From Candidatus Woesearchaeota archaeon (GTDB lineage Archaea > Nanobdellota > Nanobdellia > SCGC-AAA011-G17 > CAYHUI01), in contig CAYHUI010000001.1 of assembly GCA_964360175.1 (NCBI GenBank), forward strand, positions 16,855 through 61,767: DNA of 44,913 nucleotides, given 5' to 3'. The translations under genes and the position numbers were made by a program. Every line of letters begins with the position of its first letter. Position 1 is the first letter of the stretch. This document shows, in pieces, positions 17,681-44,843 of this stretch. The notes beneath the pieces were generated by a model, which did no database searches, was not told the origin of the DNA, and worked only from the letters and a program-made list of their open reading frames with translations.

Positions 17681-18598
17681 ATGAACATAACAATTCCGCA
17701 AAAATTTAAAGATCGTTATACTAAATTAGTTGATGATCCTAATAATTTTTTTAATATTCTATCAAAACCCCTTCAGAAATCCTTTAGAGTTAATACTTTA
17801 AAATCTTCAATAAATGAAATTAGAGAAAGATTTAATATTTATGGAATAAATATCAAACAAGTACCGTGGTATTCAGACGCTTTTATTTCTGAAAGTCTTG
17901 CTGTTGGCGTTACATTAGAATATTTTCTCGGCCATATCTATATTCAAGAACTTACTTCGATGTTGCCACCATTACTAATTATAAAGGAACTTCAAAATGC
18001 AAAAATCGTTCTTGACGGTTGTGCTGCACCAGGATCAAAAACAACCCAACTTGCAGATTTTATGAAGAATCAAGGTACGATCATAGCTAACGAATTAGAT
18101 TATGCTAGATTATACATCTTAAAATTCAATTTAGAAAGAATTGGTGTTATTAATACTATCCTTACAAGATACGATATGAGATTTTTTCCAAATGAATTGG
18201 AATTTGATGTCATTCTTGTTGATGTACCTTGTTCCGGTGAGGGAACTATAAGGAGAGACCCAAAGGCTTTATCAAACTGGTCAGAAAATCGAATTCTAAG
18301 ATATGTTGGTATTCAAAAACAAATCATCTTAAAAGCTTTTGATCTTCTAAAACCTGGAGGTCATATTGTATATTCTACTTGCACTTTTGCTCCAGAAGAA
18401 AATGAAAATGTAGTGGACTTTTTACTTAATAAAAGACCTGCAAAAATAGAGAAAATAAATATACCTAAAATAAAACTTACACCAGGTATACAAGAATGGA
18501 ATGGTAAAACATTTAATTCAGACATAAAAAAAACAGTTAGGATTTGGCCCCATCATAACGATACTAATGGATTTTTCTTAGCAAAAATTAAAAAATGA
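17681..18598 (+). CDS. RsmB/NOP2/NSUN family RNA m5C methyltransferase
   Basis: FRVNTLK, YIQE, DGCAAPGSKT, DVPCSGEG, VYSTCT..PEENE, GFFLA. Confidence 0.93.
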   Translation: MNITIPQKFKDRYTKLVDDPNNFFNILSKPLQKSFRVNTLKSSINEIRERFNIYGINIKQVPWYSDAFISESLAVGVTLEYFLGHIYIQELTSMLPPLLIIKELQNAKIVLDGCAAPGSKTTQLADFMKNQGTIIANELDYARLYILKFNLERIGVINTILTRYDMRFFPNELEFDVILVDVPCSGEGTIRRDPKALSNWSENRILRYVGIQKQIILKAFDLLKPGGHIVYSTCTFAPEENENVVDFLLNKRPAKIEKINIPKIKLTPGIQEWNGKTFNSDIKKTVRIWPHHNDTNGFFLAKIKK

Positions 18599-19047
18599 TC
18601 AAAAAATGTCCATCAAAAAAACAACGTTTAGTATTTAATTATTTAGAAAAGAGATTTGGTATTAAAAGAGATAGTTTTAATGATTTTAATTTATATACGG
18701 AAGAAAAAGGTAAAATTTTCCTTGGACCAAAAACATTTATTAATCGATGTATCTCTATCGGTTTAGTTATCGCCCGAATCGATAATTCTATTGAACCATC
18801 TAATAATTTACTCCAAACTTTTGGAAAATATGTTAAGAAAAATTTTATATTGTTAAATAAAGAAGACGCACTTAGCTATATCAAAGGTGAGGATTTAGAA
18901 TTTTTGCAAGATGAAATTAAAGAAGCAACCGAAGGATATGTATTACTTAAATATTCCAATTTTCCACTCGGATGCGGTTTACTAAAAGGGAAGCATTTAA
19001 AAAATATGTTGCCAAAAGCAAAAAGATTAAAATTAGAATTTCTATAA
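18595..19047 (+). CDS. NIP7/RsmF-type PUA-like accessory domain protein, partner of the m5C methyltransferase
   Basis: ATGA overlap with the MTase; YIKGEDL, GYVLL...PLGCG....LKNMLPK. Confidence 0.75.
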   Translation: MIKKCPSKKQRLVFNYLEKRFGIKRDSFNDFNLYTEEKGKIFLGPKTFINRCISIGLVIARIDNSIEPSNNLLQTFGKYVKKNFILLNKEDALSYIKGEDLEFLQDEIKEATEGYVLLKYSNFPLGCGLLKGKHLKNMLPKAKRLKLEFL

Positions 19048-22377: not shown

Positions 22378-23847
22378 TTATTTTGGTCTCATAAAAGGGA
22401 ATAAAATAACATCTCTTATTGAATCAGTATTTGTTAATACCATAACTAATCTATCTATTCCAATACCAAATCCACTTGTGGGAGGCATTCCGTATTCCAA
22501 AGATCTTATAAAATCTTCATCTAATCTTTGGGCTTCCACATCCCCCTTTTTAAAATTTTTTTCTGCTTCTCTCCAATATTCTTTAAGTCTTTCAGGATTA
22601 TTTTCTTCAGAGTAGCTTAAACCTAATTCAACTCCATTAATTATAGGTTCAAATGCTTCTGAAAATCTTTCATCTTTTCTATTTACCTTTGCCAATCCAA
22701 ATGCTTCTCTAGGATAATCATAAACTAATGTTGGTTGTATTAATTTAGGTTGAACCATAGTTTCAAAAATAGCTATTAATATTTCTCCGGTATTTTCAAA
22801 TTTACTTATATCAATTTTAAAATCCTTTGCATATTTTTTAGCTTTTTCAAGAGTTAAATCGTTTATATCAACTTTAGCGTACTGCTTTAAAGCATCAGAA
22901 AATCTAATTCTTTTCCAAGGTGTTTTTAAATCAATAATATTATTTCCAACTTTAATTTTTAAATCACCCAGAACTTTTTTTGCTATATAACTTATCATAT
23001 CTTCACAAAATTTCATATTATCTTTGTAATCTGCATAGGCCCACATAGTTTCCATCTGTAAAAATTCTGGGTTATGAACTTTGTCTATACCTTCATTTCT
23101 AAAATCTTTGCTAAATTCAAATATTCTTTCATAACCTCCAACAATCAATCTCTTTAAATATAATTCATTAGAAATTCTCATATAGACTTTCATGTTTAAA
23201 GCATTTAAATAAGATTCAAAAGGTCTTGCACTTGTACCGCCGTAAATTGGTTGTAGTATTGGAGTTTCAACTTCAACAAAACCATTTTTTATTAAAAATT
23301 CTCGCATAGCTTGAATTATTTCATTCCTTTTTAGAAATATTTTTTTAACATCTGTATTTACAATCAAATCAACATATCTTTGTCTGTAACGAGCTTCGAC
23401 ATCTTTCAAACCATACCACTCTTTTGGTAGAGGTCTTAAATTTTTAGTTAATAATTCTAAACTTTTAACTAAAATAGAGATTTCTCCTTTTTGTGTTCTA
23501 AAAACTATTCCATTAATTCCAATTATATCTCCAATATCTAATTTATTAAAAATTTCATAGGTATCTTTACCGACTTCATCTTCTTTAATATAAAATTGAA
23601 TATCTCCTGTAAAATCTTTTATATGTCCAAAACTAGCTTTGCCCATAACTCTTAAACTTATTATACGACCAGCAACAGAAACTTCTTTATTTGTTTTTTC
23701 ACCATCTTTTAAATTTTTATTATCTTCTAGAATTTCTAGGGCTGTATTTTTCTTATCAAATCTATAATTATAAGGATTAATATTTTTATCTCTTAAAAAT
23801 TTTAATTTTTTTATTCTTTGCTGCATTAATTCTTCTTCTGGTTTCAT
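22378..23847 (-). CDS. lysS: Lysine--tRNA ligase, class II
   Basis: OB-fold anticodon domain, RYRQRYVDL, EVETPIL, FRNEGID..HNPEF, YGMPPTSGFGIGIDRL. Confidence 0.97.
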   Translation of the reverse strand: MKPEEELMQQRIKKLKFLRDKNINPYNYRFDKKNTALEILEDNKNLKDGEKTNKEVSVAGRIISLRVMGKASFGHIKDFTGDIQFYIKEDEVGKDTYEIFNKLDIGDIIGINGIVFRTQKGEISILVKSLELLTKNLRPLPKEWYGLKDVEARYRQRYVDLIVNTDVKKIFLKRNEIIQAMREFLIKNGFVEVETPILQPIYGGTSARPFESYLNALNMKVYMRISNELYLKRLIVGGYERIFEFSKDFRNEGIDKVHNPEFLQMETMWAYADYKDNMKFCEDMISYIAKKVLGDLKIKVGNNIIDLKTPWKRIRFSDALKQYAKVDINDLTLEKAKKYAKDFKIDISKFENTGEILIAIFETMVQPKLIQPTLVYDYPREAFGLAKVNRKDERFSEAFEPIINGVELGLSYSEENNPERLKEYWREAEKNFKKGDVEAQRLDEDFIRSLEYGMPPTSGFGIGIDRLVMVLTNTDSIRDVILFPFMRPK

Positions 23848-29101: not shown

Positions 29102-30550
29102 TTAAGGTAAAACTCTATATGGTCTCATATCAGTACCATAAGGCAAACCATCTACTGTAGAATATATTCTCAATTCAGGATCTGTTAAAGAAGTTCTTGT
29201 ATATGGTTTAAATCCATGAATCATTGGACTTGTTGAATCAGATGGAGCTACTACCCAACCACCAGCTGTTTTTCCTGTAATTTTTTCTCCTAATATTTTA
29301 GCTATACTTAAATGAGGTATTCCTAATGAATCAGCTACTTCTCTCAGATCTGGTGTAATTAAAACATCCCCTCTTGTTGGATAAGCAGGATCACCTACAT
29401 ATCTGTTTAAAACTAGTAAACCCCAGCTTCTTGGAATTGTTGAATCTATACTACAATTCCAACCAAATGTATCAGGTAATGGACTAGAAATAACCTTAAT
29501 ATAAAGATCTTTTCCTGGTTGATTCCATAATTCAATTCCTGCTTTAATTGCATTTCTAAATAAAGTATCTAAATCAATTGAATCAGGTAAAGAAATATTA
29601 ATAGTATCTGTATCCCATAATTTTAAATTTGATAAATAAGGAAAAGAAGGTGTTATTTCTTTTACTAATTTTAATTCATCTATTATATCCCCCTCTATTG
29701 TAAAAACTGTATCTGGATTTGAAAATTGATTAGGATATGCAAAAATCGGTGTATAGATTGAATCCCCTTCAGCTACAAAAAAAAGTGGGGGTGGTGATGC
29801 TAATCCATAATTTATTCTTTGTTCTAAGTTAAGGTTGGAGTTATTATTATCTTTATCCCCTTTAATAAATACTAATTTTCCATTTATATTTTTGCCATTA
29901 ACCTTAAATCTATAAAAGTAAATTCCATTACTTACTTTTCTATCATTATTATCTATACCATCCCATCTATATTTATAATTACCTTCATTTAAATTAGCAT
30001 CAACTAAGGTTCTAATTAATCTTCCAGAAAGATCAAATATATCTAAATTAACTTCACTTCTTTCTTCTAAATTTAAATTAAAAAAAGTTTTTGTACTAAA
30101 AGGATTTGGATAATTTCCAATATTAAAATTTATATTTTTTTTATTATCTTCATCTATTCCAACAACACAATCTAAAAAAAATCCTCCATCAACATCTGTA
30201 ATATCACTAGCACAAGGAGGATTAACTCTAAAGGAATCAGGCCATTGATAAAAGCTAACAACATGACCCCTAACAGGTTGCTTATCTCTTGCAGATATTA
30301 AATATGATGTATAATTTTGCTTTTCTAAATTAGGTTGTTCAGCAGAAATTGTAGGTGTTAAAGCTAAACCACTGAATAAAGCTGCTACACCTGCTGCAAG
30401 AATTCTTGTAGTTTTACTAAACCTTTGCTTTTCTTCTACAAGATATAAAGGACTTTTTCTAAATAAACCTCTTATAGGTGGTTTAATATTTACTTGATGC
30501 CCAGTAATACTTTCAGCTATATTTTCAGCAGTTATTAATTCAATTGACAT
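29102..30550 (-). CDS. Secreted protein with an internal FlgD-Ig / T9SS C-terminal-like domain
   Basis: NYPNPFS...LDIFDLSGRLIRTLVD....G.Y...WDG.D.....VSNGIYFYR. Confidence 0.72.
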   Translation of the reverse strand: MSIELITAENIAESITGHQVNIKPPIRGLFRKSPLYLVEEKQRFSKTTRILAAGVAALFSGLALTPTISAEQPNLEKQNYTSYLISARDKQPVRGHVVSFYQWPDSFRVNPPCASDITDVDGGFFLDCVVGIDEDNKKNINFNIGNYPNPFSTKTFFNLNLEERSEVNLDIFDLSGRLIRTLVDANLNEGNYKYRWDGIDNNDRKVSNGIYFYRFKVNGKNINGKLVFIKGDKDNNNSNLNLEQRINYGLASPPPLFFVAEGDSIYTPIFAYPNQFSNPDTVFTIEGDIIDELKLVKEITPSFPYLSNLKLWDTDTINISLPDSIDLDTLFRNAIKAGIELWNQPGKDLYIKVISSPLPDTFGWNCSIDSTIPRSWGLLVLNRYVGDPAYPTRGDVLITPDLREVADSLGIPHLSIAKILGEKITGKTAGGWVVAPSDSTSPMIHGFKPYTRTSLTDPELRIYSTVDGLPYGTDMRPYRVLP

Positions 30551-38641: not shown

Positions 38642-41002
38642 ATGTTTAATCCAAAAATAAAAGATAAAATATGGTCCAAAGATTTTGAAAAACCAATTTA
38701 TGAATCATGGAAAAAAAATCAAATTTACAAGTTTGATAAAAAAACAAAGAAAAAGATTTATTCTATAGATACCCCCCCACCTTATGTAAATACACCAGTT
38801 CATATAGGACAAGTTACAACTTATGTTTTAATGGACATGTTTGCACGTTTTAAAAGAATGTTAAATTACGAAGTTTTATTTCCTTTAGGATTGGATAGAA
38901 ATGGTTTGCCAATAGAGATTGCAGCTGAATACAAATTTAAAGTTAAACTAACAGAATTATCAAGGGAGGAAGCAATAGAACTTTGCAAAAAAATATTAGA
39001 AGAATCTAGTTTAGCTTCTGTTGAATCTTTTTTAAGATGCGGAATTAGTTTTAACTCTTGGAATAAAGGTAATGATATAGGAGAAATTTACGAAACTGAT
39101 TCTGCTGATTATAGAAAATTAACACAAGAAACTTTTATTGATTTATTTAATAAAAATTTAATTTATGAAGATGAGCGCGTTAATAATTTTTGTCCTGGCT
39201 GTCAAACAACTTTAGCAGACGCAGAAATTGATTATAAAGAATTACCAACGACTTTTAATGATGTAAAATTCAAAGTGAAAGAAACTAAAGAAGATATTAT
39301 CATAGGAACAACAAGGCCTGAATTAATATGCACATGCGCTATGGTTATATATAATCCAAAAGATAAAAGATATAAACATTTAAATGGAAAAACAGCAATT
39401 ACTCCAATTTTTAACAAAGAAGTTCCAATAAAATCACATCCATTAGCAGAGATTGAAAAAGGAACTGGTTTGGTTATGATGTGTTCTGCAGGGGATATAT
39501 CAGATATAAGATTTTTTAGGGAGATGAAATTACCTTTAGTTATAGCAATAAATAAAGATGGGGTTATGAATGAACATGCAGGATTTTTAAAAGGTTTAAA
39601 AGTTAAAATTGCAAGAGAAAAAATTATTGAAGAATTAAAGAATAGAAATTTGTTAGTAAAACAAGAAAAAATAATACATAGACATCCTGTATGTGAAAGA
39701 AGTAAAGATCCAATTGAATTTATAGAAATGCCAGAATATTATTTAAAACAACTAGAATTTAAAAACGAAGTTAAAAAATTAGCAAAAAAAATTGATTTTT
39801 ATGATTCTAAAAGTAAACAAATTTTATTTGATTGGATTAATTCTATAAGTATGGACTGGCCTATTAGCAGAAGAAGATTTTATGCAACTGAAATTCCTCT
39901 GTGGTATTGTGAAAATTGCAATGAAATTGTTGTTCCAAAAAAAGGAAAATATTATCAGCCGTGGAAAGAAAAACCTCCAATTAATAAATGTAAATGCGGT
40001 TCAACTGAATTTATAGGAGAAACAAGAGTTTTTGATACATGGTTTGACAGTTCTAACACTCCATTTTACATTTTAGGATATTCTAAAAATAATAAATTCT
40101 TTAAAAAAGTATTTCCGTGTACATTAAGACCACAAGGAAAAGAAATAATTAGAACATGGTTATATTATACTTTAATTAAATCTTATTTGTTAACTAAAAA
40201 AAATATATTTAAAGATGTCTGGATAAATTATCATATTGTTGATAATAAAGGTTATAAAATGAGTAAAAGCGAGGGTAATGTAATTGATCCTAAAGATATA
40301 TTAGATAGATTTGGAGCAGAACCATTTAGATTATGGTGCGCAACAGAAGGTAATTTAACCAAAGGTGATTTAAGATGTTCTTTTGATAGGATAGAAGGTG
40401 CATCTAAAACTTTAAATAAAATTTGGAATATTGCAAGATTTATTTCTATGTTTAAATACACCAAAACAAATAGATTAGAAGAATTAGACAAATGGATAAT
40501 ACAAGAGTTAAATAATTTAATTGAGTTTGCTGAAAAAAATTATGCAAAATATGATTTTCATAATCCAACCATAAAAATAAAAAGTTTTATTTGGGAAGTT
40601 TTTGCATCTCATTATATCGAATTGGTAAAATCAAGAGCTTATAAAAATGACAAATCAGCAATTTATACATTAAATTATTGTTTAGACAACATATTAAAAT
40701 TATTATCTCCGGTTATACCATTAATCACATATAAAATCTATAAAGATTTAAGAAATAAAGATATTCATTTTGAAAAATTCCCAAAAATAGAAAATAAATA
40801 TAAATTAAAATTTTCAACTAAAGATTTAATAGAATTAAATAGTAGAATTTGGAAGGAAAAAAAAGATAATGGTTTAAGTTTAAATTCAGAATTAAAAAAA
40901 TTAACTTTGCCTTTAAAATTTAAATCCATTTCAAAAGAAATCAAAGAAACACATAATGCAAAAGAAATCAATTTTGGAAAAGAATTTAAGATAGAATTTT
41001 AA
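38642..41002 (+). CDS. valS: Valine--tRNA ligase (archaeal type)
   Basis: SIDTPPPY, HIGQ, TTRPE, GTG.VM, DW.ISRRRFYATEIP.WYC, VFDTWFDSS, LRPQG.EIIRTW, KMSKS. Confidence 0.95.
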   Translation: MFNPKIKDKIWSKDFEKPIYESWKKNQIYKFDKKTKKKIYSIDTPPPYVNTPVHIGQVTTYVLMDMFARFKRMLNYEVLFPLGLDRNGLPIEIAAEYKFKVKLTELSREEAIELCKKILEESSLASVESFLRCGISFNSWNKGNDIGEIYETDSADYRKLTQETFIDLFNKNLIYEDERVNNFCPGCQTTLADAEIDYKELPTTFNDVKFKVKETKEDIIIGTTRPELICTCAMVIYNPKDKRYKHLNGKTAITPIFNKEVPIKSHPLAEIEKGTGLVMMCSAGDISDIRFFREMKLPLVIAINKDGVMNEHAGFLKGLKVKIAREKIIEELKNRNLLVKQEKIIHRHPVCERSKDPIEFIEMPEYYLKQLEFKNEVKKLAKKIDFYDSKSKQILFDWINSISMDWPISRRRFYATEIPLWYCENCNEIVVPKKGKYYQPWKEKPPINKCKCGSTEFIGETRVFDTWFDSSNTPFYILGYSKNNKFFKKVFPCTLRPQGKEIIRTWLYYTLIKSYLLTKKNIFKDVWINYHIVDNKGYKMSKSEGNVIDPKDILDRFGAEPFRLWCATEGNLTKGDLRCSFDRIEGASKTLNKIWNIARFISMFKYTKTNRLEELDKWIIQELNNLIEFAEKNYAKYDFHNPTIKIKSFIWEVFASHYIELVKSRAYKNDKSAIYTLNYCLDNILKLLSPVIPLITYKIYKDLRNKDIHFEKFPKIENKYKLKFSTKDLIELNSRIWKEKKDNGLSLNSELKKLTLPLKFKSISKEIKETHNAKEINFGKEFKIEF

Positions 41003-41004
41003 AA

Positions 41005-42102
41005 ATGGCATTAACTTTAAAACAAAAACTAAGTCTAAAAAAATTTATCAAAGAATTAGCTAATATTAGAGGCAGGCATACAGAATTAGTTTCAGTTTAC
41101 ATTCCAGCAGGTTATGATTTAATTAAAATAATCCAACATTTACAACAGGAACAAGGCACTGCAACTAATATAAAAGATTCAAGAACAAGAAAAAATGTTA
41201 TAGATTCTTTAGAGAAGTGTATTAGACATTTAAGATTGTATAAAAAAACTCCTGAAAATGGATTAGCAGTATTTGCTGGAGATGTTTCTCAAAAAGAAAG
41301 TCAAATTGATATTAAAGTATGGAGCATAGAACCACTCGAACCTATCAAAACTAGAATGTACAGATGCGATCAAACTTTTGTTTTAAATATTCTGGAAGAT
41401 ATGTTAGAAGTGAAAGAAACATATGGTTTAATAATTTTAGATAATAGAGAAGCTAGTATTGGATTGTTAAAAGGAACTTCTATTATAGAGTTAGTAAATT
41501 TAACTTCTGGTGTTCCTGGAAAAGTTAAGGCTGGAGGCTTCAGTCAAGCCCGTTATGCAAGATTAAGAGAAGAAGCTGCTAATGAATTTTATGATAGGAT
41601 TGGAGAGGCTGCTAAAAAAGAATTTTTTGAAATGAAAGAACTTAAAGGTATTATATTAGGGGGACCAGGTCCTACAAAAGAATATTTTTTAGAAGGAGAT
41701 CATTTAATTAAGGAATTAAAGAAAAAAGTTATTGGAATGAAAGATTTAGGTTATACAGGAGAATTTGGATTGCAAGAATTAGTTGAAAAAAGCAAGGATT
41801 TACTTATACAAGAGGAAATTACAAAAGAAAAAAATTTAATGCAACAATTTTTTGAATTGCTAAACAAAGATACAGGCAAAGCAATTTATGGTAAAGAAAA
41901 GGTAGATAAAGCTTTAGAATTGGGTGCTATAGAAATTTTATTATTATCTGAAAGTTTGGATGATAAAGAAATAGAAGATTATGAAAATAAAGCAAATAAT
42001 TATGGGACTAAGGTAGAAATAATTTCTGTAGAAACAAGAGAAGGTATGCAGTTAAAAGGTATTGGTGGTATTGCTGCTATATTAAGGTTTGTTATAAGTT
42101 AA
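41005..42102 (+). CDS. prf1: Peptide chain release factor aRF1 with variant motifs (TATNIKD, GGFSQ)
   Basis: RGRHTELVSVYIP, NIK, P.NGLAVF.G, YRCDQTF, GGPGPTK, GGIAAILRF; N, M and C domains all present. Confidence 0.93.
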   Translation: MALTLKQKLSLKKFIKELANIRGRHTELVSVYIPAGYDLIKIIQHLQQEQGTATNIKDSRTRKNVIDSLEKCIRHLRLYKKTPENGLAVFAGDVSQKESQIDIKVWSIEPLEPIKTRMYRCDQTFVLNILEDMLEVKETYGLIILDNREASIGLLKGTSIIELVNLTSGVPGKVKAGGFSQARYARLREEAANEFYDRIGEAAKKEFFEMKELKGIILGGPGPTKEYFLEGDHLIKELKKKVIGMKDLGYTGEFGLQELVEKSKDLLIQEEITKEKNLMQQFFELLNKDTGKAIYGKEKVDKALELGAIEILLLSESLDDKEIEDYENKANNYGTKVEIISVETREGMQLKGIGGIAAILRFVIS

Positions 42103-42143: not shown

Positions 42144-44843
42144 TTAAAATCTTACAAATAATAATACTGCTATTGTATAACCCGTTCCACCACCGCCATA
42201 ATCTCCACTACTACCGCCAGATTCTCCCCCGTAACTTCCTCCACTATAACTTTCATGTCCTCCTGAATAACTTTCTCCACCATAATAATCTCCTGTTTGA
42301 TAACTTCCCCCTCCATAATAAGATCCACTGTATCCTTCTCCGCTTTGGTAAGATCCACTGTAATCCTCTCCAGTGTACGAAGGGTCGTAATAATAATATC
42401 CTGATGTTGAATCATAAACAACATTATAATAACTTCCTTGATAACCTTCTCCACTAGATTCAGGAACTACATAACTGCCCTTATCATAATCATAAGAACC
42501 TGGTACATAATCATAATATTGTCCACTAGTAGTAGATTGATAAGCCCAAGTTCCTTTAGATGGATCATAATCATAACTTAAATGTTCTCCAGTAGATGAT
42601 TGATAAATATATTCTCCTCTCGCTTCATTATATTTATAAGTCCAAGTATCTCCTGAAGTTTCATCAGTATAAGATGTTAATGAAGGTTCATAGGTTTTTC
42701 CTGTTGAAGATACCCATCTTCCTTTTGATTCATCATAATCCCATTCTTCTCCTTCATCAGTTGTATAAGATCCTTCATCTTCCCATCCTGCTGGATAATA
42801 TACTAATGAAGGTGTATAAGTATTTCCTTTATCAGAATTCCATCTATCCTTTTCAGGATTATAAGTCCATATTTCTCCTGTTTCAGGATCTTCATGCGAA
42901 TAATCTTGTTCTGCATTATCATATATTATCTCTCCATATCTCTCTCCTTCAGGTTTGTAAATCCAACCATTGGATGAAACAAATGTATTCCATTCAGGAT
43001 GATAATCATACGGAATATTTGATTCTCCTGTATAGAATTCATAACCTGTTGGTTTATAAGTAAATTTTTCTCCACTAGATGTTGAATAAGTATCTCCTAT
43101 ATCATATTTATAAGTTTGCTCTGTTCCATCAGGTAATGTAACTTTATAGCCTGTTGGGGTATAAGTATGTATTGTTCCATCTTCTAATGTATAGGTATGA
43201 ACCTCATTACCTTGTTTATAAGCTTCTGGAAATACGTAATCTTCATTGTATTTTACTTCATATTCAATGCCAGCAGGTGTTTTAAAAAAGTAATGGTCCC
43301 TATAAAATGTATATTCAAATTTAGACTGAGGATTTGTATAAGTATAACCTTCAACAAAACCACCAACTTCTTTACCAACCCCCTCACCTTCTTTTATATC
43401 AATAGGGGGTAGACCAAGAGGAAATACATCTAACTCTATAGCTTCATGAGATATACCTGGTGGAATAAAAGGTTCACCATAAGCAATTTCGTATTCTTGA
43501 GCAAATTTTTCTATTAATATTCTACTAGCTTCCTCTTCACCAACCTCTACCATCAATCTTTCAAAGTCTATATTATTATACTCATCTTTTAATTTTTCAG
43601 CAAGCTCTATTACGTTCTTTGATCGCTCATACATACTTTCGTATTTGTATTGTTCATCTTCTGGTAATGTTGATATTAATTCATCTTTAACTTCTTCATA
43701 TTCTATAACAAATTCTGTATTTTCTTCTTCAATCTCATCGTGATGGAATTCAACTATCTCTAAAAGATCACTTAAATCACCTTCAATTTGTGGTTCTAAA
43801 TTAATTCTATCCTCTTCAGAAAGAGTTTCTAATTCTTCATAATGTGTAAGTATTTCATCAACATTTAAAATTGACTCTTCTGCCTCAACAAGATCTTCAA
43901 ATGCTTCTCTGAATTCATCTAAATTATAATTATATTCACATTTTTGCAATTTTAATTCTATATCATCTGTAATTGTATGAATTTCGTTAAATGTAGCTTC
44001 ATCAATAATCCCTTCTTCTAATGCTGTTTCAGCTTCTAATTTAATTTCTTCTAAAGAAGCTTCTGCAGCTTGAAATTCTTCAGTAACTTCTTGTTCAAAT
44101 ACATCATTCAAACCTGCTTCTTCTTCTAATACATTAGTAACTTTAAGCTCTACTTCTAATTCTGTTGTTCCGGTTTCTAATGCAACTAATTCTTCTAATT
44201 CATCCTTTTGAGTTTCAACTGCACTTTCAAGAGAAGCAAATTGAGTTAAAACATCATCTATATGAGTAGCTGAAGCATCTTCTGTTGTAATTTCACCTGC
44301 ATCTACAGCTTCTACTAATCCCACTTTTATTTCATCTAAAATATCATCTTGTTGCAAAACTGTTAGCTCTTCTTCTATAATATTATCAATACCTTCAACA
44401 TCATTAATAGAATCTTCATGTTTTTCTATGGCATTAACAAGCTGCTCTGCTGAATCTCCTGCATCTACATAATCTCCTTCTTCTATTTCTACTTGTATTT
44501 CAAGAATTTTTTCTTGTATAACTAATTCTGGATCTTCAAAATTGTAATCCCACCATCTATCAAAAAAATAGAAAAAATCACCATGAGTTAGACCTTCATC
44601 AAAATCCTGAAATTCTTCTTCATCTTCATGTTCTTTGGTAAAGAATACATCTTCCCATGAATTTATATCTTCTGTGATTATTTCTTCACCAGTTATAGGA
44701 TCTATTATTTTACCAGTTTCTGGATCGATGTAAACAGGATGGCTTGGAGCAATAACGATTTTAGAAGAAAAAGATATTAAAAATGCAATCATTAATAAAA
44801 ATATTAGAATCCCCCTCACTACAACTGCATTACTTTTCTGCAT
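42144..44843 (-). CDS. Large acidic secreted protein: DUF5667-like helical N-region, Tyr/Thr/Gly beta-hairpin repeats, Gly/Ser/Tyr tail
   Basis: Signal peptide; GLTHGDFFYFFD...KILEI; Glu-rich helices; repeats like TGE.W.Y.....RW.SSTG.TY.P; YSGSY/YGG low-complexity end. Confidence 0.72.
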   Translation of the reverse strand: MQKSNAVVVRGILIFLLMIAFLISFSSKIVIAPSHPVYIDPETGKIIDPITGEEIITEDINSWEDVFFTKEHEDEEEFQDFDEGLTHGDFFYFFDRWWDYNFEDPELVIQEKILEIQVEIEEGDYVDAGDSAEQLVNAIEKHEDSINDVEGIDNIIEEELTVLQQDDILDEIKVGLVEAVDAGEITTEDASATHIDDVLTQFASLESAVETQKDELEELVALETGTTELEVELKVTNVLEEEAGLNDVFEQEVTEEFQAAEASLEEIKLEAETALEEGIIDEATFNEIHTITDDIELKLQKCEYNYNLDEFREAFEDLVEAEESILNVDEILTHYEELETLSEEDRINLEPQIEGDLSDLLEIVEFHHDEIEEENTEFVIEYEEVKDELISTLPEDEQYKYESMYERSKNVIELAEKLKDEYNNIDFERLMVEVGEEEASRILIEKFAQEYEIAYGEPFIPPGISHEAIELDVFPLGLPPIDIKEGEGVGKEVGGFVEGYTYTNPQSKFEYTFYRDHYFFKTPAGIEYEVKYNEDYVFPEAYKQGNEVHTYTLEDGTIHTYTPTGYKVTLPDGTEQTYKYDIGDTYSTSSGEKFTYKPTGYEFYTGESNIPYDYHPEWNTFVSSNGWIYKPEGERYGEIIYDNAEQDYSHEDPETGEIWTYNPEKDRWNSDKGNTYTPSLVYYPAGWEDEGSYTTDEGEEWDYDESKGRWVSSTGKTYEPSLTSYTDETSGDTWTYKYNEARGEYIYQSSTGEHLSYDYDPSKGTWAYQSTTSGQYYDYVPGSYDYDKGSYVVPESSGEGYQGSYYNVVYDSTSGYYYYDPSYTGEDYSGSYQSGEGYSGSYYGGGSYQTGDYYGGESYSGGHESYSGGSYGGESGGSSGDYGGGGTGYTIAVLLFVRF

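Follow-up and report, generated by a model that had tools for sequence, protein, structure and literature searches.

Phenylalanine in the catalytic glutamine's place within the only aRF1 found in a Woesearchaeota genome, and similar loops across DPANN archaea

In a 44,913-nucleotide stretch of DNA from a Candidatus Woesearchaeota archaeon (contig CAYHUI010000001.1; hereafter the window), the gene for archaeal release factor 1 (aRF1) encodes a catalytic loop that reads Gly-Gly-Phe-Ser-Gln, with phenylalanine at the position of the catalytic glutamine of the Gly-Gly-Gln (GGQ) motif. That motif is a textbook invariant of peptide release, common to two unrelated release-factor families. In eukaryotic and archaeal factors (e/aRF1) it has been called 'universally conserved' (PMC2613156). 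We find that the variant protein is an aRF1 orthologue and the sole copy in its genome, that genes of this kind are under purifying selection, that such loops recur among DPANN archaea, and that they go together with loss of Mtq2, the methyltransferase that acts on the GGQ glutamine. The protein is probably, if some way short of certainly, a functional, sole class-I terminator whose catalytic loop has been remodelled and no longer depends on methylation. What a first reading of the window's sequence (the original prediction) had noticed is confirmed, and it extends further than that reading could show; the mechanism is something that we infer. A literature search whose coverage stopped short of the supplementary alignments of PMC6514570 found no report of an aRF1 without the glutamine or of a DPANN lineage without Mtq2.

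A full-length aRF1 with an altered catalytic loop

The gene, its upstream neighbour and the parts of its product are as follows (window coordinates).

38642..41002, plus strand: valS, valine--tRNA ligase (NF009687, 847.1 bits)
41005..42102, plus strand: aRF1 gene, open reading frame (ORF) of 365 amino acids plus TAA stop (TIGR03676, 428.3 bits)
41038..41406, plus strand: N domain (eRF1_1), stop-codon recognition, residues 12-134 (PF03463, 56.2 bits, cut-off 23.8)
41167..41178, plus strand: NIKD, this protein's version of the NIKS decoding motif, residues 55-58 (motif reading)
41359..41379, plus strand: YRCDQTF, the YxCxxxF decoding motif, residues 119-125 (motif reading)
41422..41805, plus strand: M domain (eRF1_2), which bears the catalytic loop, residues 140-267 (PF03464, 131.8 bits)
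41533..41556, plus strand: remodelled catalytic loop, G177-G178-F179-S180-Q181-A182-R183-Y184 (codons, phmmer alignment)
41821..42093, plus strand: C domain (eRF1_3), residues 273-363 (PF03465, 94 bits)

The original prediction had described a full-length aRF1 with N, M and C domains, 2 nucleotides downstream of valS, and both parts of that description hold. The protein lies above the Pfam cut-off for all three domains and reaches 428.3 bits on the NCBIfam aRF1 equivalog model (cut-off 234.7); its N domain begins at residue 12, with no N-terminal extension, and the recomputed distance from the 3' end of valS to the aRF1 start is indeed 2 nucleotides, a housekeeping gene context. The NIKD form of the decoding motif is also found in GGQ-bearing relatives of the same order, and the S of NIKS is described as variable, with L, N or D in its place (Atkinson 2008, PMC2613156). 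Identity to its GGQ-bearing neighbours is 60-70% over the full length, and 60-66% to GGQ aRF1s of the order; only two or three loop residues set the protein apart from these neighbours. Judged by descent and architecture, the window protein is a true aRF1 orthologue: it lacks the defining GGQ tripeptide, yet we file it as such because of its descent in the tree.

Within the reading frame, positions 41533-41547 run GGA GGC TTC AGT CAA and encode G177, G178, F179, S180 and Q181, followed by A182, R183 and Y184, where the canonical aRF1 loop has GGQS(A/S/Q)xR(F/Y). Phmmer aligns the region ('vpgkvkaggfsqaryarlr') without a gap to the solved aRF1s 4af1_A ('vpgkqrkggqsaqrfarlr') and 3agk_A ('vpgkhkmggqsqrryerii'), so that Phe179 falls on the catalytic glutamine position. 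Codons, frame and gapless alignment thus agree on GGFSQ instead of GGQ, as first proposed.

Contigs from runs X2 and X3 (other samples, from the study to which the possible source belongs) show 0 differences across 41400-41700, with no sign of a GGQ version, and GGFSQ is likewise the reading in two database proteins, P0002 at 99% identity and P0003 at 86%. The earlier judgement that a sequencing error is unlikely is therefore upheld, although one argument behind it needs correction: it had put the change from Gln to Phe at two substitutions or more, whereas the codons for Gln (CAA/CAG) have no position in common with those for Phe (TTT/TTC), three substitutions are always required, and the change can never be a single slip. 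These contigs and proteins, along with intact frames and a low ratio of nonsynonymous to synonymous substitution rates (dN/dS), rule out sequencing error or a pseudogene.

Does the genome hold another release factor? Profile searches of the window's genome (G000; 604,967 bp, 34 contigs, 92.3% complete, 0% contamination) with TIGR03676 and PF03464 at E<=10 returned the window aRF1 as the sole match, and hence neither a second aRF1 nor, in this 92%-complete assembly, a pelota/Dom34. A second eRF1-family match is also not seen in many GGQ relatives. The original prediction had allowed for a GGQ-bearing aRF1 elsewhere and a decaying copy here; G000 yields no such second gene, and dN/dS is low. A bacterial RF-1 domain was found in none of five non-Gln genomes searched (G000 and four others). 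The variant is likewise the only aRF1 in 5/5 other DPANN genomes from four lineages, one of them a chromosome record; second, weak matches in two of these five are pelota, true pelota genes scoring 248-290 bits on TIGR00111.

The stop codons of 433 long ORFs in G000 (G+C 26.6%) comprise TAA 351 times, TAG 43 times and TGA 39 times. All three stops thus end long ORFs, there is no sign of a reassigned stop, and we set aside an altered genetic code for this genome. Purifying selection on the variant genes is strong, with dN/dS of 0.036-0.065 in the clades with Phe (GGF) and 0.16 in a genus with Trp (GGW), and the Gly-Gly pair is kept in every variant loop seen.

Recurrence among DPANN archaea and loss of Mtq2

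The best 120 homologues, taken together with the query, comprise GGFSQ in 8, GGYSQ in 1 and GGQ in 112 sequences, with an intein directly after GGQ in 10 of the 112; their source names are Woesearchaeota, Nanoarchaeia or Nanoarchaeota. A pattern scan over all 240 genomes of the window's order recovered a contiguous loop in 111, of which 12 are non-Gln. Carriers are the window's genome and, by genus, g69 with four genomes (Phe), g73 with two (Trp), g84 with one (Tyr), and g107 and g6 with one and two (Phe); all 12 loops continue with Ser-Gln and then Arg-Tyr. Thirty further genomes without a contiguous loop were examined for split genes: an aRF1 was found in 18, intein-split in 18/18, with GGQ|C in 13 and GGW|C...HN|SQ(Q/A)RY in 5. 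The order therefore contains 17 genomes with GG[F/W/Y]SQ.RY, 12 contiguous and 5 intein-split.

To judge from a tree of 165 aRF1s from which the loop columns had been removed, the 24 non-Gln rows require six state changes, at least five of them forced by well-supported branches. An IQ-TREE analysis of 67 rows also gives six changes and rejects a single non-Gln clade (delta lnL 234.7; approximately unbiased (AU) test, p 2.46e-5), and with it the idea that the variant arose once only in the order. P0001, P0002 and P0003, which make up the window's clade, are nested among GGQSA sequences, so that Q179F and A181Q both arose on its stem.

The original prediction had suggested that the loop be surveyed across DPANN aRF1s, and the variant proves recurrent in the order, in Aenigmatarchaeota and in other DPANN. 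A scan for V-P-G-K-x3-G-G followed by a codon not starting with C, across prokaryotes at one genome per species, gave at least 117 stretches. Among the 117 listed, at least 77 are aRF1-like ORFs with YxCxxxF and a non-Gln loop: GGWSQ in 50, GGWSA in 11, GGFSQ in 6, GGYSQ in 3, GGMSQ in 3, GGSSA in 2, GGWSS in 1 and GGFSA in 1. Residue 179 in these listed ORFs is W in 62, F in 7, Y in 3, M in 3 and S in 2, that is, aromatic in about 71, and the codons seen at this position among variants are six (TTC, TTT, TGG, TAC, TAT, ATG). The records are labelled Aenigmatarchaeota, Nanoarchaeia/Woesearchaeota, Micrarchaeota, Pacearchaeota, Iainarchaeum or simply 'archaeon', and 9/9 variants tested on TIGR03676 score 389-482 bits.

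Aenigmatarchaeota were also sampled (121 genomes, 79 readable loops). Here 39 loops are GGQ and 40 non-Gln (Trp 35, Tyr 2, Met 2, Ala 1), mostly GGWSQ; on the tree, the non-Gln rows form roughly one large group with two GGQ rows inside, for a total of 3 changes. These two rows, from G324 and G355 (L275, L276), are GGQSAARF aRF1s; Mtq2 is complete in G324 and weakly matched in G355. Their GGQ state could have come about by reversion or by joint transfer of the two genes, or it could reflect an error in binning or in the tree.

Three loop sites co-vary: 179 (Gln to aromatic), 181 (to Gln, here Gln+2) and 184 (Phe to Tyr, here Tyr+5). Gln+2 and Tyr+5 occur together in 17/17 non-Gln loops of the window's order. 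In Aenigmatarchaeota, Gln+2 is present in 35/40 non-Gln loops versus 3/39 GGQ loops, and Tyr rather than Phe follows the Arg in 34/40 versus 7/39. Note that loops without Gln+2 exist as well, namely GGWSA(N/S), GGWSS, GGFSAH and GGSSA(A/P), and that the GGWSA(N/S) forms are nested inside GGWSQ clades of the Aenigmatarchaeota tree. Gln+2 is therefore not obligatory.

According to van Tran et al. 2018 (PMC6144793), HvoMtq2 methylates Gln187 of the aRF1 GGQ, and every archaeal phylum has Mtq2 orthologues. The original prediction had pointed to the HemK/PrmC methyltransferase as a gene worth looking for, and this proved to be the key test, since the archaeal orthologue, Mtq2, is absent from the G000 assembly. 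Neither lineage-specific tblastn nor a hidden Markov model (HMM) built from relatives detects it there; the best tblastn match (E 5e-4, 27% identity) is an ORF without an NPPY-type motif. For the wider comparison we used TIGR00537, the archaeal HemK/Mtq2-type model, which scores above its cut-off in four archaeal control genomes. Overall, Mtq2 is missing or degenerate in 62/62 non-Gln genomes and present in 125/138 GGQ genomes.

In the window's order, where 199/240 genomes have a TIGR00537 match at E<=1e-14, we tallied loop and TIGR00537 results by hand. Among the 17 non-Gln genomes there is no strong Mtq2 match: 12 have no match at all, some of these genomes being 98-100% complete, and 5 have a weak match (1e-21 to 1e-25). 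The 99 GGQ genomes, counted as those with a contiguous loop, divide into 88 with a strong match, 4 with a weak one and 7 with none. The picture in Aenigmatarchaeota is similar, with 37/39 GGQ genomes over the TIGR00537 cut-off and, among 40 non-Gln genomes, 36 without a match and 4 with a weak one. TIGR00537 also finds no Mtq2 in five further non-Gln DPANN genomes (0/5).

In genus g6, which has Phe at position 179, a weak Mtq2 homologue persists with NAPY, as opposed to the catalytic NPPY in six GGQ genomes. Its genes (L213, G005:C1:419800-420900; L214, G033:C1:538600-539700) also have GGVYG for GGKKG, with an intact 191-amino-acid ORF conserved between both species. The protein may have a new substrate or be in slow decay.

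Three eRF1-family sequences with GGWSQRRF or GGSSQRRY come from records not labelled DPANN: L104 and L148 (uncultured Desulfurococcaceae archaeon) and L046 (Bathyarchaeota). On the aRF-1 model L148 reaches 368 bits, and it carries NIKL. These genes may be second paralogues or come from co-binned symbionts.

Known families and possible workings of the loop

How does the protein compare with known relatives? With aRF1/eRF1 (TIGR03676; structures 4af1, 3agk/3vmf) it shares three domains, NIKS-type and YxCxxxF motifs, the GG pair and the loop length, and it is an orthologue by tree and single-copy in its genome. It differs from them in the catalytic Gln, replaced by Phe (in relatives by Trp, Tyr, Met, Ala or Ser), in Gln+2 and Tyr+5, and in the absence of Mtq2.

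The loop itself fits the GGxSQ motif, which the original prediction had called typical of aVLRF1 and acVLRF1 and which is indeed stated for both (Burroughs & Aravind 2019, PMC6514570). A second statement, that both lack the N domain, holds for acVLRF-1 only: aVLRF-1 is described as keeping the stop-codon-binding domain while missing the C-terminal domain and having an N-terminal coiled coil (PMC6514570). Six bacterial proteins among the scan matches listed have VPGKxxxGGWSQxR[FY] with the same spacing, and their best Pfam match is baeRF_family10 (75-101 bits), with acVLRF1 second. VLRF1 and baeRF-10 are accessory or rescue paralogues of other architecture, whereas the window protein is an aRF1 of full length and housekeeping type. 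On the NCBIfam acVLRF1 model (NF041024; cut-off 125) it reaches 37.8 bits, and on the Pfam one 43.7 bits, above that model's own cut-off but far under the 131.8 bits of eRF1_2 over the same stretch. An intermediate or chimera between aRF1 and VLRF1, as first envisaged, is unsupported, given whole-length identity to GGQ neighbours, the position nested among them and these model scores. Likeness to VLRF1/baeRF-10 is confined to the loop, a comparison of sequences that indicates convergence.

Pelota/Dom34 is also an eRF1-family protein without the catalytic Gln. Unlike the window protein, with its GG tip, NIKD and YxCxxxF, pelota is described as having no GGQ tip, NIKS or YxCxxxF (PMC2613156); the window protein scores 115.4 bits on the pelota model TIGR00111, below the cut-off of 177.65.

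There are several scenarios for how a loop of this kind might work. We favour the one in which the gene is a working terminator with a remodelled loop, as follows. The intact N domain would read all three stop codons, and the GG-Phe-Ser-Gln-x-Arg-Tyr loop would release the peptide. Both glycines and the main-chain NH of residue 179 would keep the critical positioning in the peptidyl-transferase centre, while the aromatic ring (Phe here, Trp or Tyr elsewhere) would take over the packing role, or pocket, of N5-methyl-glutamine against A2451, C2452 and U2506. That pocket would be the crevice for aromatic aminoacyl or puromycin side chains. Gln181, probably with Tyr184, would place a polar group close to the hydrolytic water, as suggested for VLRF1 GGxSQ loops (PMC6514570). 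Because no Gln is left at the canonical position, Mtq2 would be without a substrate, and hence lost or degenerating.

Structural work offers several points of contact with this scheme. The glycines of GGQ are reported to adopt glycine-only torsions, the main-chain NH to help hold the water, and the Gln side chain to have a 'packing role', N5-methylation adding van der Waals contacts to U2506, A2451 and A2452 (PMC5799190); the side chain is described as packing and as selecting the nucleophile, with the main chain contributing to catalysis (PMC5799190, PMC9589212). The original prediction had offered a canonical terminator using a shifted catalytic Gln as one explanation. Orthology, sole copy and the co-variation of Gln+2 fit that idea; the shifted Gln as a general requirement does not stand, Gln+2 not being obligatory.

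A simpler scenario is that the terminator is functional but that nothing substitutes for the Gln. Imagine that the backbone of the GG pair, together with the main-chain NH at residue 179, suffices: Gln181 and Tyr184 would then be structural or historical passengers, and the aromatic residue would merely be tolerated. Sole-copy aRF1s without Gln+2 speak for such a scenario (GGWSA(N/S) and GGWSS in 12/77 listed ORFs, plus GGFSAH and GGSSA(A/P)), as do the nesting of Gln+2-less forms inside GGWSQ clades and the presence of Met, Ala or Ser at position 179 in some lineages. Three observations argue against it: the strong aromatic bias (about 71 of 77 listed ORFs), the coupling of the swap to Gln+2 and Tyr+5, and the alteration of both 179 and 181 on one stem in the window's clade. 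On balance we regard it as rather unlikely, while taking it more seriously than any of the alternatives that follow.

A different kind of explanation invokes inteins. Many relatives have one exactly between residue 179 and Ser180, and the altered codon lies inside the presumed homing recognition site; a non-Gln codon at -1 might thus spoil the homing-endonuclease target at GGQ|S, with Gln+2 rescuing function. The idea is weakened because GGW alleles themselves carry the intein (GGW|C...HN|SQ, in five genomes, mini and large forms). Moreover, synonymous changes would blur the DNA target too, and neither Mtq2 loss nor the aromatic choice is explained, so that we give escape from inteins little credence.

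We think it still harder to credit that the variant is no peptidyl-tRNA hydrolase at all, being instead pelota-like or a Vms1-type cutter of the CCA end, and that release falls to an unrecognised factor. The GGxSQ motif of the VLRF1 families and the failure to find pelota in G000 would suit this idea. Yet the protein is the only eRF1-family member found and keeps its stop-codon motifs, no bacterial-type release factor was found, the GG pair is invariant and purifying selection on the genes strong, many GGQ relatives likewise have no second eRF1-family match, and cutting CCA at each termination would be costly. Finally, the chance that an artefact, a decaying gene or post-transcriptional correction underlies the variant is vanishingly small: we found no point in its support. 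Against it stand the identity of the contigs from two other samples, the spread of 24 non-Gln sequences over six clades within the order, six different codons at position 179, intact frames and dN/dS of 0.04-0.16.

To return to the functional terminator with a remodelled loop, a number of points weigh against it. Its activity and the roles of Phe179, Gln181 and Tyr184 are read from sequence, and Gln+2 is not universal among non-Gln loops. Changes to the Gln of GGQ are reported as lethal or toxic in model organisms (PMC9589212), and yeast Q182E as impossible to propagate (PMC12440015). Some GGQ genomes are also without Mtq2 (7/99 with none and 4 with a weak match; two families with 0/3 each), so that either loss, of Gln or of Mtq2, may have come first; many of these genomes are incomplete. 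Paired tests of correlated evolution on the trees yield 2-3 independent pairs, none opposite, and with so few contrasts they cannot reach significance and have little power; in a within-genus matched pair (G139 versus G140), aRF1 is not in the G139 assembly. For G000 alone, 92% complete, a second factor or Mtq2 may sit on unassembled DNA. Lastly, we see no consistent change in 23S ribosomal RNA (rRNA) near the peptidyl-transferase centre, a comparison of 3 non-Gln with 5 GGQ sequences and low power: large-subunit rRNA was recovered from 11/20 genomes searched (none in the G000 assembly), and 4/977 columns separate the two groups, none in anchorable central-loop motifs.

Two differences were seen within the 23S alignment. 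L202 (G118, GGW) has CGACGUCGG in the peptidyl-transferase region, versus CGAUGUCGG in the other seven of the order, and L201 and L206 (G021 and G001, both GGQ) have GAUAAUU versus GAUAAC(A/U) in the others. Neither tracks the Gln state.

With regard to the laboratory mutants of RF1, RF2 and eRF1, the same residue is changed in both cases; those changes are reported as lethal or toxic in vivo, whereas the DPANN change is natural, fixed, recurrent and accompanied by two more loop changes and by methyltransferase loss.

One might go further, although here we would sooner be taken as raising a possibility than as expecting it to hold. DPANN may have repeatedly evolved a second, methylation-independent solution to peptide release, in which an aromatic residue at the tip of the loop plugs the A-site pocket, much like the side chain of puromycin or of an aromatic aminoacyl group, Gln+2 and Tyr+5 handle the water, and GGQ plus its methyltransferase become dispensable; the GGWSQ loop of VLRF1/baeRF-10 would be the same solution, whether it converged on it or is descended from an aRF1 of this type.

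These loops amount to a natural experiment on what the Gln side chain and its methylation do, setting water coordination against packing and exclusion of nucleophiles. They offer comparative evidence that modification of GGQ is the selected job of archaeal Mtq2, and a background for the GGxSQ rescue factors, whose chemistry is disputed. GG[W/F/Y]SQxRY provides ready loop designs for model archaea, yeast and mtq2-deletion backgrounds. Essential genes such as these would be flagged in error by any annotation or quality filter that requires GGQ.

Inteins in relatives and other features of the window

The inteins between residue 179 and Ser180 (L027-L033, L170-L187) come in two sizes, mini forms of about 130-144 amino acids and large forms of about 360-430. 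Those in GGW alleles (GGW|C...VHN|SQ) are L178, L179, L180, L182 and L186, from G110, G111, G112, G103 and G118 respectively; the rest are in GGQ alleles. Given these GGW alleles, splicing with Trp at -1 appears to be tolerated. PF03464 and TIGR03676 find no aRF1 in G099, G100, G101 and G113 (family f22; one of them 98% complete), and G114 has aRF1 fragments only, at contig ends (L188-L190). The probable cause is a gap in assembly where the gene carries an intein.

Elsewhere in the window, the following features were recorded.

17681..18598, plus strand: NOL1/NOP2/RsmF-type RNA cytosine methyltransferase
18595..19047, plus strand: 150-amino-acid ORF matching the C-terminal part of RsmF, with a 4-nucleotide overlap with the upstream methyltransferase
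22378..23847, minus strand: lysyl-tRNA synthetase of class II (lysS_bact), not the archaeal class I (NF001756, 630 bits)
29102..30550, minus strand: 482-amino-acid ORF with a weak match to the bacterial type IX secretion system (T9SS) C-terminal sorting domain, unexpected in an archaeon (TIGR04183, 39.6 bits)
42144..44843, minus strand: 899-amino-acid ORF with an N-terminal hydrophobic segment, a very acidic, Glu/Asp-rich middle and a Tyr/Gly/Ser/Thr-rich C-terminal third

The 899-amino-acid ORF has no NCBIfam match and is possibly a surface protein. The RsmF-type gene at 17681..19047 is either split or two-part.

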